Assembly (NCBI GenBank): GCA_965247455.1 | Contig: CBDFHE010000017.1 | Location: 3,048 to 67,047, forward strand | Direction: 5' to 3' | DNA length: 64,000 nucleotides | DNA from: Candidatus Acidiferrales bacterium | GTDB lineage: Bacteria; Acidobacteriota; Terriglobia; Acidiferrales; 2-02-FULL-67-57 | In this document: positions 2,525 through 63,439 of the stretch, piece after piece | How positions within the stretch are numbered: position 1 is the stretch's first letter | Layout: each line of letters begins with the position of its first letter | Notes under the pieces: generated by a model | Database searches by the model: none | Seen by the model: the letters and a program-made list of their open reading frames with translations, nothing else | Told to the model about the DNA's origin: nothing | Made by a program: the position numbers and the translations under genes

Positions 2525-2666
2525 GGTAGTGGGTCATTTTGGAAATGTGAATCTCACGCCGAGCCCCGTGGCACCTGCCACGGGGTGCTTTTGCCGCCCA
2601 TCCACCCGGCGGCGGGTGCCGCCGGGCTCAGCGGTAAAGGTAACGTCATCAAACTGACCCACTACC
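2525..2666. mobile_element. MITE family A (142 bp), IS1-like termini
   Basis: 17-bp TIR GGTAGTGGGTCA(T/G)TTTG with 1 mismatch; 8-bp TSD CAGAAACG (2517-2524, 2667-2674); internal GC hairpins. Confidence 0.9.
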
Positions 2667-4534: not shown

Positions 4535-5921
4535 TGTAGCTGCAAAGTGAGAATGTCCTATTTGCGCAAAGTAGGAATGTCCTCTTTCATCAGGGCCAGG
4601 AGGGACGATGAGAGAGGAGCGAATCGAATTGAGCCAACGGGAGCAGGATCGGTTGAAGGTACTCCACCAAGTCGAGCAGGGCTATCTGACCCAGGTGGAA
4701 GCGGGCCGGCGGGTGCAGGTGAGCGTACGCCACCTGCGGCGTCTGCTGAGACGGGTGCGGGCGGAGGGGGACAGGGGCGTAGTGCATCGGCTGCGGGGGC
4801 GGCCCTCGAACCGGAAGATTCCAGCGGCCCTCCAGGGGCGCATCCTGGCCCAGGTGCGGCGGCGCTACGCCGACTTTGGGCCCACGCTGGCCAGCGAGCA
4901 CCTGGCGCGAGATGGGTGGCAGGTCAGCCGGGAGACGCTGCGGCAGTGGATGACCGCCGCCGGGCTGTGGCGGTCGCGCCGGCAGCGGAGGCCGGCGGTG
5001 CACGTCTGGCGAGAGCGGCGGGCCGCCTTCGGCGAGTTGGTGATGATGGACAGCTCGCCCTATCGCTGGTTGGAGCGGCGCGGACCTCCCGTGCAGTTGA
5101 TCGCGCTGATCGACGACGCTACCAGCCGGGTCTGGGGCCGCTTCGCCGCCCAGGACTCGACCGAGGAAAACCTGCGCACCCTGGCAGGCTGGCTCCGGCG
5201 CTGGGGACGGCCGCGGGCACTCTATACCGACAAAAGCAGCCTGTTCCGCACCACCCGCTCGGCCCGGCTCGACGAGCAGCTCGGCGGTCAGCCGGCCCGC
5301 ACCCAGATCGGGCGGGCCCTGCAGGAGTTGGGGATCGAGTGGATTCCCGCCCACAGCCCCCAGGCCAAGGGGCGCATCGAGAGACTATTCGGCACCTTGC
5401 AGGACCGCCTGGTCAAGGAGATGCGCCTGGCCGGGGTGCACACGGTGGAGCAGGCCAACCGCTTCCTGGCAGCAGTCTTCCTGCCTTTCTGGGAGCAGCG
5501 CTTCACCGTCGCTCCGCGCCAGCCGCACGATGCCCACCGCCCGCTGGGAGGCACCCAGCGGCTGGAGTCAATCCTGAGCGTGCGCGAACCGCGCCGGGTG
5601 GCAGGCGACTACACCGTGCGCTGGCAGGGCCAGCGCTGGGCGATCCCGCGCGCCCAGGTGCGAGCGGGGTTGCGGGGGGCGCGGGTGGAGGTCGAACGGC
5701 GGCTCGACGGCAGCCGCTGGGTCCGCTTCCGCGGCTCTTATCTCAGCCTGCGGCCCTGCCCGAGCCCGCCGCCCGCGCCCGCAACCCCCTTCGGCCTACG
5801 GCCTACGGGGCTTGCGGGCCCAAGGAAAGGCAAACGAAAGTACATTCCCCCTCCCGATCACCCTTGGAGGAGGACATTTCTATCTGGCAAAAAACCGGGA
5901 CATTTCTACTTTGCGTTGACA
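4535..5921 (+). mobile_element. IS1202-family (formerly ISNCY) insertion sequence
   Basis: Ends TGTAGCTGCAAAGTGAGAATGTCC / GGACATTTCTACTTTGCGTTGACA; subterminal repeated boxes; 15-bp TSD CGGGGAGATTTTGTT (4520-4534, 5922-5936). Confidence 0.88.
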
Positions 5922-5981
5922 CGGGGAGATTTTGTTGAGAGCAGAAAAAGACCCGTCCGAAAACAGAGAAAAAAAGGATAG
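4608..5981 (+). CDS. DDE transposase (IS1202/ISNCY type)
   Basis: N-terminal HTH, motifs MMDSSPY, IDDAT, LYTDK, SPQAKGRIERLF; the frame runs through the right end. Confidence 0.92.
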   Translation: MREERIELSQREQDRLKVLHQVEQGYLTQVEAGRRVQVSVRHLRRLLRRVRAEGDRGVVHRLRGRPSNRKIPAALQGRILAQVRRRYADFGPTLASEHLARDGWQVSRETLRQWMTAAGLWRSRRQRRPAVHVWRERRAAFGELVMMDSSPYRWLERRGPPVQLIALIDDATSRVWGRFAAQDSTEENLRTLAGWLRRWGRPRALYTDKSSLFRTTRSARLDEQLGGQPARTQIGRALQELGIEWIPAHSPQAKGRIERLFGTLQDRLVKEMRLAGVHTVEQANRFLAAVFLPFWEQRFTVAPRQPHDAHRPLGGTQRLESILSVREPRRVAGDYTVRWQGQRWAIPRAQVRAGLRGARVEVERRLDGSRWVRFRGSYLSLRPCPSPPPAPATPFGLRPTGLAGPRKGKRKYIPPPDHPWRRTFLSGKKPGHFYFALTRGDFVESRKRPVRKQRKKG

Positions 5982-23071: not shown

Positions 23072-23090
23072 CCTGCCTACCGCAGGCAGG
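23072..23090. repeat. 19-nt hairpin micro-element
   Basis: CCTGCCTACCGCAGGCAGG inside a larger GGAAGAGGTG...GCACCCGCTTCC hairpin. Confidence 0.85.
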
Positions 23091-39619: not shown

Positions 39620-39732
39620 GCGGAACCCCCTTCGGAGGAAAGTGAACCCGCCCCCGCTCCACGCGAACGGGGCGACCCAAACCAGAGAGGATGCCCGACG
39701 CTAACTCCTCTTGTCAAGCCGCGATTCCGCTT

Positions 39733-39933
39733 GGCTGTGGGTCTTTTTGAAAATGGGAAGCTCACGCCGAGCCCCGGGGCTTGTCCTGCCTGTCCCGAGC
39801 GTAGGCGAGGGAAGCGAAGCCGAAGGGCACCTGCCACGGGGCGCTTGTGCCGCTTTTCCGCCCGGCGGCCTGCCTGCGGTAGGCAGGCAGGTGCCCCGCT
39901 GGAAGGTACGGGACAGGCCGCCGGGCTCAGCGG
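39733..39933. mobile_element. Decayed copy of MITE family A carrying three inserted hairpin modules
   Basis: Colinear with 2525-2640 after removing inserts at ~39781-39828, 39869-39887 and ~39894-39917; right TIR not found. Confidence 0.75.
39869..39887. repeat. 19-nt hairpin micro-element
   Basis: CCTGCCTGCGGTAGGCAGG; absent at the same site of the intact MITE (2525-2666). Confidence 0.9.
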
Positions 39934-40013
39934 CCAACCAACAGTAGGCAAGCGGCGGGGCACAAGGCCCCGCCCTACCCCGCTGCTGGGCACAGAAACA
40001 GGTAGGGCAGGGG

Positions 40014-40032
40014 CTTGCCTGCCTCAGGTAGG
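40014..40032. repeat. 19-nt hairpin micro-element (variant)
   Basis: CTTGCCTGCCTCAGGTAGG interrupting GTAGGGCAGGGG|CTTGCC. Confidence 0.6.
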
Positions 40033-40122
40033 CTTGCCGAAGGGCCCCTGCGTTCTGCTCTTGGGAGAACACCCTCACGGCGACCGTGGAACCGAGCACG
40101 TGAGGTCTGCGACACCGAGGCG

Positions 40123-42654: not shown

Positions 42655-44349
<1,695 letters not shown>

Positions 44350-44703
44350 TTTCCTCCACCCGTCTTGCTCCAAGGCGAACGGCCGGACGGCCTCCGCCGG
44401 GCCTGGGGGTTAATCGATTAAGATGGAAACAGTTATCAGGATTTCCTTCGATTCTCAGCGCGCCGACGCACCCCTCCACGACTCGCCACACTAGATTAGA
44501 TCGAACCAGCCGCCTAAACCTTCCGCCAAAACCTTTCTAAATTAGCAGGTAAGCCCGCCCGCCGTCAACTCGTCTCCGGCAAAGGTAGTGTCTTAATTTC
44601 ACACCGAGCCCCCAGGCCCCTGCCTGGGGGAAGCGAAAATCCCTGCGGCGGGGGCCGCAGGGCTCGGTGTGATTTGGGCCGAGTTCCGAATCGCTCAAAT
44701 TAA

Positions 44704-46373
44704 CCCGGATTTCCGATTTGGCTGTGGTACCGTATCGCCAGGACCAGTCGCTGCGCCTTGAGTTTTGGGGCTCCGACGTAAGGAACCACACTACGGAGGG
44801 TGACACCCGGTGGGTGAATTACAACACGAGCCATTCCAGTTCGCGTTCAACGGCTTCTTGAAAGTCGCGTTCCAGGGATCGCGCGTCACTTCTGACGCTG
44901 GCCTCATTCTGGTGCGCGAGTTGGATGAACGTCTGGGGCTGGAGACACTCATCGCCGAGCACCTGAGCGATTCCCGACAGGGGATGAACACCCAGTTCAG
45001 CGTGGTGGATCTCCTGCGGCAGTCGGTCTACAGTCGCCTCGCGGGCTACGAAGATCTCAACGACGCGGGGCGCGTGTCGGCAGACCCAACATTTCGTCTC
45101 ATCGGGTCGCCAAAGCGCTGGGACCGGGGTGCGGCGCTGACATCGACGCTGCATTGGTTCGAGACAGAGCTGCTGACCCACGAGGAGAATCTCGTCGGGT
45201 TGAGGGCCGTGAACCGGGAGGTGCTTGCACAGGCCGAGATGGCGACGCGCGCCGACCGGATCGTGCTCGACATGGATTCGAGCGAGAGCCCGGTGCATGG
45301 GGCGCAGGAAGGGAGCGCCTATAACGGGCACTTCGAGTCCGTCTGCTACCACCCGCTGTTTCTGTTCACCGAGCATGGGGACTGCCTCGCCGCCACGCTG
45401 CGGCCAGGCAACGTGCATAGCGCCGACGACTGGGACGACCTGCTCGTACCGGAGATTGACCGGCAGCAGGTGGAGGGCAAGCGCGTAGCGTTCCGCGCAG
45501 ACGCCGCGTTCGCGAAGCCCGAGATCTACGACGCGCTCGAGCAGCGCGACGTGGACTATGCCATTCGCATGCCGGCGAACAAGAGCTTGGAGCTGGAAAT
45601 CGAAGACATCCTCTTTCGTCCGCCGGGACGGCCGAGCTGCAAGCCCTTGGTGCGCTACCAGAGTTTCCGCTATCAGGCCAAGAGCTGGACCACGCCCAGA
45701 CGGATCGTCGCCAAGGTGGAGCACCACCAAGGTGAGCTGTTCCCTCGCGTCGGCTTCATCGTGACCAACACGGCCCTCCCGAGCCGCTCGGTCGTGCGGT
45801 TTTACAACAAGCGCGGTACGGCGGAGCAATGGATCAAGGAAGGCAAGCAGGCCACCCACTGGACGCGGCTGTCGTGCCATCGTTTCCGGGCGAACGAGGT
45901 GCGCCTGCAACTGAGCGTCCTGGCCTACAATCTGGGCAACTTGTGGCGCAGACTGGTCCTTCCGCTGCGGGTCAAGCGCTGGTCGCTCACGAGTCTCCAG
46001 CAGCGACTGGTGAAAACTGGGGGCCGGCTGGTGAAGCATGCGCGGTACTACTGGCTTCTGCTGGCGGAAGGGCATCTCACGCGGCGGCTGTTCGGCGACA
46101 TGCTGCGGAGGATCTGGGCGCTACCCGTGCCGGCAGGCTGACGCGCGGCCTGAAGTGCAACGAAGCCCGCCCGGCGATGACACGGGGCACACGTGTGGAG
46201 CGGTGTCTGAGAAATGCCCGAAAAGCAGGGGTTCCAGTCGGTCGCACGTCGGCGCGGGCTCAGATGAAGGCCTTTGAAGCTGAGCGATTGTGCGACGATC
46301 GAAGTTTTTGTGCGATCGGCGGCGATCGGGTGTATAAACGTGCCATCAGGGGCAGGCAAAACGGAAATCCCGG
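44704..46373 (+). mobile_element. IS1380-family insertion sequence
   Basis: 17-bp TIR CC(C/G)GGATTTCCG(A/T)TTTG; 5-bp TSD ATTAA (44699-44703, 46374-46378). Confidence 0.92.
44810..46141 (+). CDS. IS1380-family DDE transposase
   Basis: TSDAGL, GYEDLND, LDMDSS, YNGHF, FRADAAF, YNKRGTAEQWIKEGK. Confidence 0.95.
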   Translation: MGELQHEPFQFAFNGFLKVAFQGSRVTSDAGLILVRELDERLGLETLIAEHLSDSRQGMNTQFSVVDLLRQSVYSRLAGYEDLNDAGRVSADPTFRLIGSPKRWDRGAALTSTLHWFETELLTHEENLVGLRAVNREVLAQAEMATRADRIVLDMDSSESPVHGAQEGSAYNGHFESVCYHPLFLFTEHGDCLAATLRPGNVHSADDWDDLLVPEIDRQQVEGKRVAFRADAAFAKPEIYDALEQRDVDYAIRMPANKSLELEIEDILFRPPGRPSCKPLVRYQSFRYQAKSWTTPRRIVAKVEHHQGELFPRVGFIVTNTALPSRSVVRFYNKRGTAEQWIKEGKQATHWTRLSCHRFRANEVRLQLSVLAYNLGNLWRRLVLPLRVKRWSLTSLQQRLVKTGGRLVKHARYYWLLLAEGHLTRRLFGDMLRRIWALPVPAG

Positions 46374-47446: not shown

Positions 47447-47621
47447 CAGAACTTCGGCTCCCCTTGCAAACAAGCCATTATAGGGGCGCTCGCGCCGGGT
47501 GTCAACGAGGTGTACTCGTCCAGTAGATTAGTGACACTTGGCCTCCTTTGATTGGGATTGCCACTGGGCCAGAAACTCGTGGGGAGTGAGGTAGCCCAGG
47601 GCTTGGTGCGGACGCACGGTG

Positions 47622-47640
47622 CCTGCCTGCCGCAGGCGGG
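47622..47640. repeat. 19-nt hairpin micro-element in transposase
   Basis: CCTGCCTGCCGCAGGCGGG; removal restores codons TAC AAC ACC GTG. Confidence 0.92.
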
Positions 47641-47837
47641 TTGTAGACGCGCTCCCACGCCTGCAACTCCTGATTGAGGGCCGCGATCTCCAGGGAGCAC
47701 TCCGTGACTTCACAAAACTCCTCCCGATGGGTGCGCTGGGCCCGCTCGACGCAGCCGTTGAGTTTGGGCGAGCGGGGCGGCAGCACGAACAGTTTCAACC
47801 CCCGCTGCTGGCAGGCCTCTTCGAAGACGGCGGCGAA

Positions 47838-47856
47838 CCTGCCTACCGCAGGCAGG
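47838..47856. repeat. 19-nt hairpin micro-element in transposase
   Basis: CCTGCCTACCGCAGGCAGG; removal restores AGT GAG TTC GCC. Confidence 0.92.
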
Positions 47857-48405
47857 CTCACTGCCGCCATTGACCTGCAGAGCTCGCAGCGGGAAGGGCA
47901 GGCGTTGCTGCAGGGTGTCGAGGAAGCGGGCCGCAGCGCTGGCCGTGGCTCGGCGGTGGACCTCGACCACGTCCCAGCGGCAGATTACAGCGCGAGCCGT
48001 AAAGTGCTTGAGGACCACGCCCGGCAGAGGCCGCAACTCCAGGGTATCGACTTGCACCAGATCGCCGGGCTGGGAGATGCAGTAATCCTTGGGCTTACGC
48101 ACGGCATAGGGCCGCCGCCCGCCGCGCCGGTGCGCGCGGACCGCCCGGCGGGGCGCTTCCACCAGCCGACCGCGCCTCTTCAGTTCCGTGAGGATGCGTC
48201 CCACCATCGAGGTGGACACCCCCACCCCTTCCCGGCGGAGCAAGACCACCAGTTTGCCTTCCCCCACCGGGGGCGCAACCGCCGCAGTCTCCGCACCCGT
48301 TCGGCCCACTGGGGGCTCCAGGTGGGCCGGCGTCAACGGTGGGGCCGGCGGAACCGCTCCTCCAGGCTCGCGAGGTGGTGGGGATCATAGCGGCGTTTCC
48401 AGCGG

Positions 48406-48424
48406 CCTGCCTGCCGCAGGCAGG
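48406..48424. repeat. 19-nt hairpin micro-element in transposase
   Basis: CCTGCCTGCCGCAGGCAGG; removal restores TTC TAC CGC TGG. Confidence 0.92.
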
Positions 48425-48686
48425 TAGAAGGTCGGCCGGCTGATCCCGAAGTGCCGGCAGGTCAGGGCCGCGTTGCGCCCCCGGGTGCGGTAGTAGTCCA
48501 TCCACTGCACCCGGACGCGAGCGGCCCGGCTCAATTCCACTCCGGCCCGCCCGTACGGGCGGGGTAGTCTTCTTGAGATGATTTGCATGGTGACACTCTA
48601 CCAAGAGTCACCCATCATTCTGAACGAGTACAAGCACGGTGAGAGGCGCGCACCCATTTGGCTGGGCTCGTGTAGAATAACTCGCG

Positions 48687-52030: not shown

Positions 52031-52049
52031 CTCGCCTACCGCAGGCAGG
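52031..52049. repeat. 19-nt hairpin micro-element (variant)
   Basis: CTCGCCTACCGCAGGCAGG inside a GGAAGAGGTG... hairpin. Confidence 0.65.
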
Positions 52050-53022: not shown

Positions 53023-54486
<1,464 letters not shown>

Positions 54487-54890
54487 CTAGTGCTTTGTGT
54501 GACTCGTGATTGGTGACTCGAAACTCGTGCCGCCGAGGCTTGAAGCGATCGCCCCAGGGCGCTCAAGAGTTGACTCACGGATCGGCACAATTGATTCACC
54601 GTATCGAATTCTTGTTGGTTCATGTAACTCAAATCTTTGCTCAAGAGGGAGAAGTACCGCGTTTCCTCGGCCTCTCCGTTGGCGATCCGCAGGCTCCGCA
54701 AAAGCTCCTTGGTGGTTCGCCGTCCATAACCTTCCGCGATGTTTGCCGCCACCGAACTCGACGCGCGCCGCAACTGGGAAATCAGCCCGAAGCGCTCGTC
54801 TTGCGGGAATCCTCGTGTGGTCCCATAGATTTCCAGTGTCAAATCGTAGACTTTCTTCCACGCTTCCAACTCCTGAAAACTTTTGAGCAT
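54487..54890 (-). CDS. Four-helix-bundle (IVS/bAvd-like) protein
   Basis: FQELEAWK, FPQDERFGLISQLRRA..SVAANIAEGYGR; flanked by 7-mer tandem repeats. Confidence 0.9.
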
Positions 54891-55842: not shown

Positions 55843-56002
55843 CGACTCTTCTTTTCTCCGACAAACCCACAGGCGGAAGCCTGTGGGCTGAACCAAACTA
55901 ATTCTGCCCGAAGTTGTTCAGCCCAGCGGCTTCTGCCGCTGGGAGTTCCCGCACCGGCTAAAGCCCGGTGCGTTCGCGCGCGGCTCTCGACCCGGCTGAA
56001 GC

Positions 56003-56021
56003 CCTGCCTGCGGCAGGCAGG
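56003..56021. repeat. 19-nt hairpin micro-element
   Basis: CCTGCCTGCGGCAGGCAGG interrupting GGCTGAAGC|CGTGCCC. Confidence 0.9.
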
Positions 56022-59377: not shown

Positions 59378-59507
59378 GGCAGTGTCTTGATTTCGCACCG
59401 AGCCCCCAGGCCCCTGCCTGGGGGAAGCAAAAAGCCCTGCGGCGGGGGCCGCAGGGCTCGGTGTGAATTGGGGTTGAGTTTGGAATCGCTCAAATTAGGA
59501 CACTACC
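59378..59507. mobile_element. MITE family B, uninterrupted copy
   Basis: TIR GGCAGTGTCTTGATTT / AAATTAGGACACTACC; flanking repeat GGGCGCTC(T/C); near-identical to 44584-44703. Confidence 0.88.
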
Positions 59508-60189: not shown

Positions 60190-60208
60190 CCTGCTTGCCG
60201 CAGGCAAG
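60190..60208. repeat. 19-nt hairpin micro-element (variant)
   Basis: CCTGCTTGCCGCAGGCAAG interrupting CTCTCTGCG|TCTCAGCGGTG. Confidence 0.8.
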
Positions 60209-63420: not shown

Positions 63421-63439
63421 CTTGCCTGCGGCAAGCAGG
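63421..63439. repeat. 19-nt hairpin micro-element (variant)
   Basis: CTTGCCTGCGGCAAGCAGG in an intergenic CAGAG-type repeat. Confidence 0.75.

Follow-up and report, generated by a model that had tools for sequence, protein, structure and literature searches.

A 64,000-nt stretch of contig CBDFHE010000017.1 of a Candidatus Acidiferrales bacterium, an acidobacterium of soil, referred to here as the window, contains a decayed IS481-family insertion sequence (IS) that is interrupted three times by a 19-nt palindrome. The 19-mer inserted precisely and without target duplication in four events, three in this element and one in a sister species. It has a polarity, is restricted to non-essential DNA, recurs in many phyla and is found in nested, co-oriented insertions. 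We consider it fairly probable that the 19-mer is a mobile hairpin module which is kept only where it is harmless. It is probably a non-autonomous hairpin of the REP (repetitive extragenic palindrome) or SDR kind, inserted without target duplication and as single-stranded DNA, and it seems to rank among the smallest known mobile DNA elements.

Results

A decayed IS481 element carries three precise 19-nt inserts

The features of the element, identified by Pfam matches, by location of its ends and by alignment to the related locus L001, are as follows.

47511..48632, minus strand: decayed IS481-family insertion sequence
47622..47640, minus strand: 19-nt insert 1, plus strand CCTGCCTGCCGCAGGCGGG, minus strand CCCGCCTGCGGCAGGCAGG, one mismatch to the consensus; splits YNTVRPH between YN and TVRPH
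47838..47856, minus strand: 19-nt insert 2, plus strand CCTGCCTACCGCAGGCAGG, minus strand CCTGCCTGCGGTAGGCAGG, T12 subfamily (see below); splits GGSEFAA between GGSE and FAA
48406..48424, minus strand: 19-nt insert 3, plus strand CCTGCCTGCCGCAGGCAGG, minus strand CCTGCCTGCGGCAGGCAGG, exact consensus; splits TFYRWKR between TFY and RWKR
48333..48335, minus strand: in-frame TGA (CGA in the intact relative), from the alignment to L001
between 48256 and 48257, minus strand: 1-bp deletion (GGAAGG-CAAACT; intact copy GGAAGGACAAACT), from the alignment to L001

The element is 1122 nt long, or 1065 nt once the three inserts are subtracted. Its inverted ends (TGTACTCGT...) sit precisely at 47511 and 48632: the terminal repeat TGTACTCGTCCAG... 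stands at the former position and its imperfect inverse terminates at the latter, making this a ~1-kb element with terminal inverted repeats. The repaired product has 334 aa and matches rve_3 (4e-16), HTH_32 and HTH_28 in Pfam, so that both the N-terminal helix-turn-helix and the C-terminal DDE integrase core (rve) of the IS481 family are present. It has thousands of homologues named transposase or integrase and is 93% identical to the intact 334-aa protein P0001, whose coding DNA (L001:1104-2108) also shows 93% identity to the window region.

Alignment of the window to L001 contains three gaps, each of exactly 19 columns, with 0 duplicated and 0 missing target bases, at the very positions where an earlier note, made from the DNA letters, had placed three precise 19-mers. 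Junction ambiguity is at most 2 nt per site, and the symmetric 19-mer is the sole boundary that fits all three. When exactly the three 19-mers are removed, PTFYRWKRRY, NGGSEFAAVF and VYNTVRPHQ are restored in the minus-strand translation; translation and alignment agree with the claim that exact 19-nt deletions repair the conserved motifs with no base left over or duplicated. The TGA and the 1-bp deletion which the note had reported are both real. It had further described the inserts as lying in the same orientation. The central base is indeed C on the plus strand in all three, but it is this one base that defines the orientation, and such agreement has a chance of 1 in 4.

The three target sites (ACAA^CACC, TGAG^TTCG and TCTA^CCGC) all lie within predicted hairpin loops, which take up 31-35% of background positions; insert 2 is located in the loop of a predicted GGCGGC/GCCGCC hairpin. 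The flanks of the IS itself, CAACGAGG and AGCACGGT, show no duplication; the site is a synteny break relative to the sister species, and one flank may have been replaced. Homology to the sister species (L166-L172) starts exactly at the IS end at 48632, and the region upstream of serS holds other genes there in place of rplU-rpmA.

The inserts are present in an independent assembly and absent from relatives

A second assembly of the same species (L152/L174, a 784-kb contig, ~99% identical) contains all three inserts at the same positions: insert 1 at L152:3807, insert 2 at L152:2378 and insert 3 at L152:1840. Insert 1 carries its own point mutation there, the centre base having changed from G to A. 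Because the inserts are found in an independent assembly, the assembly or adapter artefact that the earlier note had named as a refutation is excluded for practical purposes. The inserts break a reading frame that P0001 keeps intact. Moreover, the 19-mer was found in none of 32 IS481-relative loci (L001, L120 and 30 more distant ones, from metagenomes) with up to 3 mismatches allowed. Together with the fourth event described below, this demonstrates an insertion process.

In the other strain an IS3-family element (orfA/orfB, L152:2513-3718) lies inside the dead IS481, at window ~47722-47728, with ~7 nt of window sequence repeated on both sides. This strain is also without 30 nt between direct repeats of GGTGGGGG (window 48227-48256). 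Downstream of rpmA (L152:4676-7019 compared with window 4535-5922) it joins sequence that is ~41 kb distant in the window; the rearrangement is bordered by IS3-type genes.

Further copies in the window are confined to spacers

The window was scanned for sites with up to 3 mismatches, and the expectation was taken from shuffled sequences. Ten sites were found where 0.05 were expected. Seven of them lie outside the IS (three near-exact, four diverged), all in spacers and 0 in intact genes:

23072..23090, minus strand: near-exact spacer copy, flanked by ubiA and an mqnC-like radical-SAM gene and set in a longer repeat, GTCCGGAAGAGGTG[19-mer]CTTCGCACCCGC
39869..39887, plus strand: near-exact copy of the T12 type in the tgt-yajC spacer (window scan)
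40014..40032, minus strand: diverged, with 3 mismatches, and in the tgt-yajC spacer like the preceding copy (window scan)
52031..52049, minus strand: diverged, with 3 mismatches, inside another occurrence of the GTCCGGAAGAGGTG... repeat and within a block that the sister species lacks
56003..56021, plus strand: exact copy in the atpA-atpG spacer, the last of four different hairpins, with no counterpart in the sister species
60190..60208, minus strand: older diverged hairpin, CCTGCTTGC-C-GCAGGCAAG, in a 46-nt repeat; the empty site that matches the L166:21160 insertion
63421..63439, plus strand: inverted second copy of the 46-nt repeat with the diverged hairpin (window scan)

The true start of the cation-efflux gene is downstream of the copy at 52031. 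A rough gene map divides the window into intact coding DNA (53.3 kb), spacers (9.6 kb) and the IS (1.07 kb). None of the ten copies falls in the intact coding DNA (~53 kb), which has a probability of ~2e-8 under uniform insertion. The observation of the earlier note that intact genes are free of inserts therefore held, whereas the window as a whole is not free of them, since it holds the seven spacer copies. Three of the six near-exact copies are in the IS, which makes up 10% of the neutral DNA (P = 0.016; for all ten copies, P = 0.07). Another IS, apparently live and with an intact 443-aa DDE_Tnp_1_4 transposase gene (44810-46141, plus strand), contains no 19-mer. Nor was one found in the two IS3 copies of the other strain, within 2 mismatches in L152 or 3 in L174.

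Several spacers are rich in other repeats. The tgt-yajC spacer (window 39620-40122) has ~500 nt, compared with 13 nt in the sister species (L173:3149-3161), and is filled with several repeat modules, including an 85-nt repeat that is also present at window 2529-2613; the YajC ORF (open reading frame) has 115 aa in the window, and the called product 160 aa in the sister species. The atpA-atpG spacer (55866-56021) holds a row of four different perfect hairpins, a BIME-like arrangement, and the sister species has other hairpins there. A 95-nt double-hairpin repeat at 44584-44678 and 59378-59472 (94% identical), found also at L174:3516-3632, forms a separate REPIN-like family.

A fourth insertion in a sister species

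By relatives of its SerRS and Tgt, the host of the window is a Terriglobia acidobacterium resembling 'Candidatus Acidiferrales'. Sister-species contigs orthologous to the window (L166-L173) are 88-96% identical at the DNA level over aligned blocks. At L166:21160 the 19-mer CCTGCCTACCGCAGGCAGG has CCTACTTGC directly on one side and CGCAGGCAAG directly on the other. Its place is the apex of an older hairpin that is uninterrupted at window position 60199. The target is TGCG^GCAA, and the difference is a clean 19 nt with 0 duplicated bases; another lineage has here acquired the 19-mer independently and cleanly. The sister species in turn has no counterpart of the window copies at 56003 and 52031. 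Further clean pairs of filled and empty sites were not found: in the tgt-yajC, atpA-atpG and cation-efflux (CDF) upstream spacers the differences to the sister species are composite blocks instead, L075 and L119 differ by 45 nt and not by 19, and L176 and L177 contain no copies. Exact-protein look-ups with glpX and secD gave no match. The two ~99%-identical strains share every copy over the 15 kb compared, and differences are seen only against the sister species, at 92-96% identity. Gains therefore took place after the species split and are not visibly still going on.

Downstream of serS, one sister lineage has a 55-nt insertion (L176:1677 compared with L166:11309) related to window 2529-2572 and 39737-39780, which points to another small mobile module active in this clade.

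The 19-mer recurs in many phyla

An exact-pattern scan with one genome per species gave at least 118 loci with at least 128 copies; the cross-genome counts given here and below refer to the matches listed. Records of the 19-mer, judged by the named phyla of these matches, span at least 15 phyla. They include Acidobacteriota, Bacteroidota, Ignavibacteriota, many Patescibacteria lineages, Omnitrophota, Planctomycetota, Verrucomicrobiota, Nitrospirota and Elusimicrobiota, and further Thermodesulfobacteriota and other former Deltaproteobacteria, Myxococcota, Beta- and Gammaproteobacteria, WOR-3, Stahlbacteria and Neomarinimicrobiota. Cyanobacteria do not occur among the matches listed. The 19-mer is also carried by isolate genomes (Algoriphagus, Galbibacter, Winogradskyella and Daejeonella), among them the complete chromosome of Algoriphagus halophilus and the genome of Galbibacter orientalis DSM 19592. 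The GC content of the loci ranges from 30 to 75%, and 36 of the 118 lie below 40%, although the 19-mer itself has 74% GC. Apart from the copies by which the loci were ascertained, the 0.83 Mb of fetched loci contain 10 exact copies, compared with 4e-5 expected from composition.

The flanks of the 19-mer are unrelated between loci, and nearly all copies in other genomes are intergenic. All-against-all BLAST of the neighbouring ORFs returned housekeeping families only (response regulators, ABC ATPases, glycosyltransferases, L14, EF-Tu and SUF-type DUF59). Viral contigs gave 13 matches. No full-length 19-mer was found in 7.3 Gb of plasmids by a low-sensitivity BLAST search, for which a 19-nt exact match is near the E-value limit. 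Candidates for genes interrupted by the 19-mer elsewhere, obtained as ORF fusions after deletion of the 19-mer, were rejected as spurious high-GC ORFs.

The 19-mer often lies inside other short repeats that recur across phyla, such as GTCATTGCGAG...CGAAGCAATC, GTCATCCCGAGCG.AGCGAGG^GATCTGC and runs of the heptamers CTCTGCG/CTCTGTG (L008, L012, L014, L018, L022, L027, L030, L038, L048, L051, L068, L099, L106, L108, L110 and L115), which suggests a shared set of small modules. An even-centred sister hairpin of the CCGG type, for example CCTGCCTGCCGGCAGGCAGG (20 nt; L065:247, L093:2993, L047:2903, L054 and L039), sometimes directly adjoins the 19-mer or is interrupted by it. At L019:795-880, tandem 67-nt units each end in a 19-mer and run into a masked stretch of N.

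Anatomy, polarity and target preferences

The 19-mer is a 9+1+9 palindrome, CCTGCCTGC-G-GYAGGCAGG, with the arms (CCTG)2C and G(CAGG)2; its folding energy as single-stranded DNA is computed at about -7 to -8 kcal/mol. Among 133 copies oriented by the central G, 74 have C and 59 have T at position 12, whereas only 4 have A at the mirror position 8 (binomial P ~1e-13). This asymmetry reveals a polarity of the element and defines two subfamilies, C12 and T12. On the strand with the G centre, 74% of copies have A or T at -2 and only 8% have T at -1, and at +1 the share of C is 56% and that of A 5%. Nesting is common. On this strand the nested copies interrupt the outer hairpin at the bond GCG^GC or, four bases off, at the identical motif CCTGC^C, and they are co-oriented with the outer copy in all five cases (P = 0.03; L047:1210, L109:4497, L166:21160, L031:4157 and L071:63).

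Two general rules were not retained. Targeting of hairpin loops holds for the IS sites and the nested cases and is unsupported over 111 sites, where only stems of at least 6 bp are enriched at the junctions (9.9% vs 5.1%, P = 0.046). A fixed orientation relative to transcription is contradicted by inconsistent counts (genes 18:2 on one strand and 8:12 on the other) and by the mixed window copies.

Two further features of the window were noted. The cumulative GC skew has its minimum at window ~44000-46000, which could be due to gene-strand bias or mark a replication landmark. Between atpD and atpG lies a 138-aa gene (54474-54890, minus strand) whose counterpart at L174:8123-8539 is marked 23S_rRNA_IVP, which is unusual in an ATP synthase operon.

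Discussion

A proposed model for the movement of the hairpin

For the single-stranded intermediate, the class of the enzyme and the choice between copying and cutting we infer the following scheme. The mobile unit would be the hairpin alone, an 8-9 bp stem of (CCTG)2/(CAGG)2 arms with a small loop. A factor supplied in trans would copy or cut it at the stem foot, exactly and on both sides, and the piece would be joined to its target without a staggered cut, hence without target duplication or loss of bases. Transfer would occur as single-stranded DNA, by an enzyme that reads one given strand of the folded hairpin. The likeliest candidate may be an HUH/Y1 tyrosine transposase of the IS200/RAYT kind, or else another hairpin-acting nuclease-ligase. 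HUH/Y1 enzymes act on single-stranded hairpins and are characterized by excision at the stem foot, lack of duplication, polarity and a taste for hairpin apices. In our scheme the apices of other hairpins would likewise be the favoured targets. To name an HUH/Y1 enzyme specifically is, however, only a tentative proposal, and one that we regard with some doubt.

Since 19 is not a multiple of 3, every insertion into a working gene would cause a frameshift and be lost by selection, so that only spacers and genes which had already become dispensable would collect copies. The IS481 copy would then have acted as a dispensable trap for 19-mer insertions, which may account for three hits in it and none in ~53 kb of intact genes. 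Of the two interpretations offered in the earlier note, purging of inserts from functional genes is thus the better-fitting one. For REP/RAYT systems, insertions of REPs into genes, and even into transposase genes, are documented (PMC3733652; PMC6006769).

Several results weigh against this scheme. No HUH/Y1 gene was found beside the copies in the 118 listed loci, nor did the 2401 ORFs of these loci that were compared by all-against-all BLAST contain a gene family shared near the copies. The mobile unit has neither an unpaired GTAG or CGTC tag nor a conserved target tetranucleotide, unlike REPs and IS200/IS605 elements, and the lineage specificity of REP/RAYT systems leaves the identity of the 19-mer across phyla unexplained. 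As both the C12 and the T12 form fold equally well on either strand as DNA, polarity alone is no proof of a single-stranded intermediate. Over the 111 sites, junctions are no more often in hairpin loops than control positions (27% vs 30%). Finally, there is no presence/absence difference between the two ~99%-identical strains over 15 kb, and current activity is therefore not shown. Of the active insertion process that the earlier note had deduced, the insertion itself stands, strengthened by the fourth event in the sister species, but ongoing activity does not follow.

A phmmer search with two approximate Y1 queries against the 6159 ORFs of all fetched DNA returned only a decayed RAYT-like gene (L035:1045-1890; MRIIAPLESGNIYHIFNR..., NNFHL, YIHFNAQHHG) with its own long double hairpins on both sides (ACCGCTGTCGGG...). 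It lies 140 nt from a 19-mer, but it is flanked by its own, different repeats and was rejected as a partner.

Other explanations

It is tempting to go further and to regard the bare 19-nt hairpin as self-sufficient, the smallest mobility unit known, unchanged over at least 15 phyla and moved into single-stranded hairpin loops either by an unrecognised, horizontally travelling hairpin transposase or by a universal host enzyme. We think this rather improbable. That no dedicated transposase is involved at all, and that ordinary host DNA metabolism copies the 19-mer by template switching, by break repair at stalled hairpins or by ligation of an oligonucleotide into a nick, also appears unlikely to us. 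Sameness across phyla would then arise because the 19-mer suits a universal host enzyme, and this fits the lack of a linked gene among the listed loci, the identical sequence in at least 15 phyla and the lack of an obvious vehicle (given the viral and plasmid searches above). Nested insertions at CCTGC^C, a motif contained in the 19-mer, and the slippage-prone tetranucleotide-repeat arms point the same way. Yet template switching needs homology, and the IS sites share only 0-2 nt of microhomology with the 19-mer. In addition, the insert length was exact in four events, and strict polarity with discrete C12 and T12 subfamilies resembles recognition by a specific protein. Alternatively, the hairpin could be driven into mobile or exposed DNA (transcribed, single-stranded or hairpin-rich), the IS being a hotspot or the object of a host or selfish mechanism that disables it, so that targeting and not tolerance would explain the distribution; this was the second interpretation of the earlier note. 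A density of 2.8 copies per kb in the IS against 0.3-0.7 per kb in spacers, the share of near-exact copies found there, the co-orientation of the three inserts and their positions in predicted hairpin loops speak for it, as does the finding that REP insertions predominate in tnpAREP genes of one Y1 subclass (PMC6006769). The weak preference for the IS (P = 0.016) is nevertheless marginal once all ten copies are counted. Neither the intact DDE gene nor, at the mismatch limits used, the IS3 copies of L152/L174 or the 32 IS481 relatives contain a copy, and in the 118 listed loci the copies adjoin housekeeping genes and not mobile elements. We therefore judge targeting quite unlikely as the cause.

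A role as functional cis elements (RNA stabilisers, terminators or protein-binding sites) placed in spacers by selection, with the IS copies as incidental, would agree with the position of copies in spacers inside operons (atpA-atpG, tgt-yajC and mqnC-ubiA), with the fact that about half of the additional copies are still perfect, and with similar roles proposed for REPs (PMC3733652). It leaves three frameshifting insertions in a dead gene unexplained, however. Orientation to flanking genes is inconsistent, no T run follows the hairpin and the copies are not conserved between sister species, and we hold this explanation to be very improbable. Least credible of all is that the inserts are an artefact of assembly or library preparation, or that the 19-mers are ancestral to the IS and were lost in relatives. 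Most matches do come from metagenome-assembled genomes, but the inserts in the second assembly include one with its own mutation and isolate genomes carry the 19-mer; an ancestral origin is at odds with the frame kept intact in P0001 and with 32 relatives without a 19-mer.

Comparison with known small elements

REPs are small palindromes of 20-40 bp that occur in many, mostly extragenic copies, with a short tail and, unpaired at one end, a GTAG or CGTC tag; stems with the CGTC tag begin with A/T pairs (PMC3733652). Each REP family is normally tied to one lineage and to a RAYT of its own (PMC6006769). The 19-mer resembles REPs and REPINs in being a GC-rich short palindrome with a high copy number in spacers, often clustered with other hairpins, in its presumed movement as a single-stranded hairpin without target duplication, and in its occasional occurrence in genes, including transposase genes (PMC3733652, PMC6006769, PMC3116915). 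It is likewise a dispersed, mainly extragenic palindrome, and its length falls just under the REP range. In contrast to REPs, the unit is fully palindromic, starts with CC and ends with GG, has no GTAG or CGTC tag and has no conserved flanks. REP families flank their own RAYT gene, and no such gene was found beside the 19-mer in the listed loci; the mobile unit proposed for REPs is a doublet (REPIN), whereas the 19-mer inserts as single units.

SDR (small dispersed repeat) modules, described by Elhai et al. in 2008 (Genome Res 18:1484), are reported to be hairpins of 21-27 nt with no known transposase that are nested in each other and in further repeats. According to two later papers, SDR5 inserted between the 3rd and 4th base of HIP1 (PMC4390886), and SDRs are found only in Nostocaceae (PMC5861425). 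The 19-mer, slightly below their size range, shares with SDRs the tiny hairpin, precise and nested insertion and the association with heptamer repeats, here the CTCTGCG/CTCTGTG runs beside it. It is set apart from SDR1-8 by its smaller size, a probably different sequence, its perfect palindrome, its presence across phyla and hosts that are not Nostocaceae.

IS200/IS605 elements and their PATE derivatives have two different subterminal hairpins, are cleaved outside them and insert 3' of a fixed tetra- or pentanucleotide. Recognition of a folded single-stranded hairpin, strand polarity and the lack of target duplication would link the 19-mer to them; it is, however, a single hairpin cut at its foot, with only weak flank preferences. 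The miniature inverted-repeat transposable elements known as MITEs are non-autonomous, 50-500 bp long and of inverted-repeat structure, and they cause target-site duplications. The 19-mer also appears non-autonomous, has an inverted-repeat structure and accumulates in spacers, but it has 19 nt and duplicated no base at four clean sites. Rickettsia palindromic elements (RPE) are much longer than 19 nt and are tolerated in frame within working genes, whereas the 19-mer cannot be in frame. RPE and the mobile GC clusters and double-hairpin elements of fungal mitochondria are likewise palindromic selfish modules in genes and spacers, but much longer.

No Rfam family matched the window at the gathering score, and only chance-level matches were seen around the inserts. 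A literature search did not retrieve the 19-mer or parts of it of 13-15 nt, nor anything relevant on tiny mobile hairpins by keyword, and no described family that fits was found. What is unusual about the 19-mer is its minimal size, the exact definition of the unit and its spread across phyla.

Conclusions

Short palindromic repeats abound in bacterial spacers, and few of them have an exactly defined mobile unit, mode of insertion and enzyme. The dead IS481 element with its intact relatives is a natural trap that gives the unit to the base, 19 nt with no duplication and a fixed polarity, and the sister species adds an independent pair of filled and empty sites. Inserts of this kind create frameshifts and spurious ORFs in the annotation of metagenomes; masking the 19-mer there, or taking it as a sign of gene decay, could be of practical use. 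The presence of the same sequence in Patescibacteria, Bacteroidota and Acidobacteriota points to a machinery that has been widely transferred or to a universal enzyme that is exploited; either would be new, if true.

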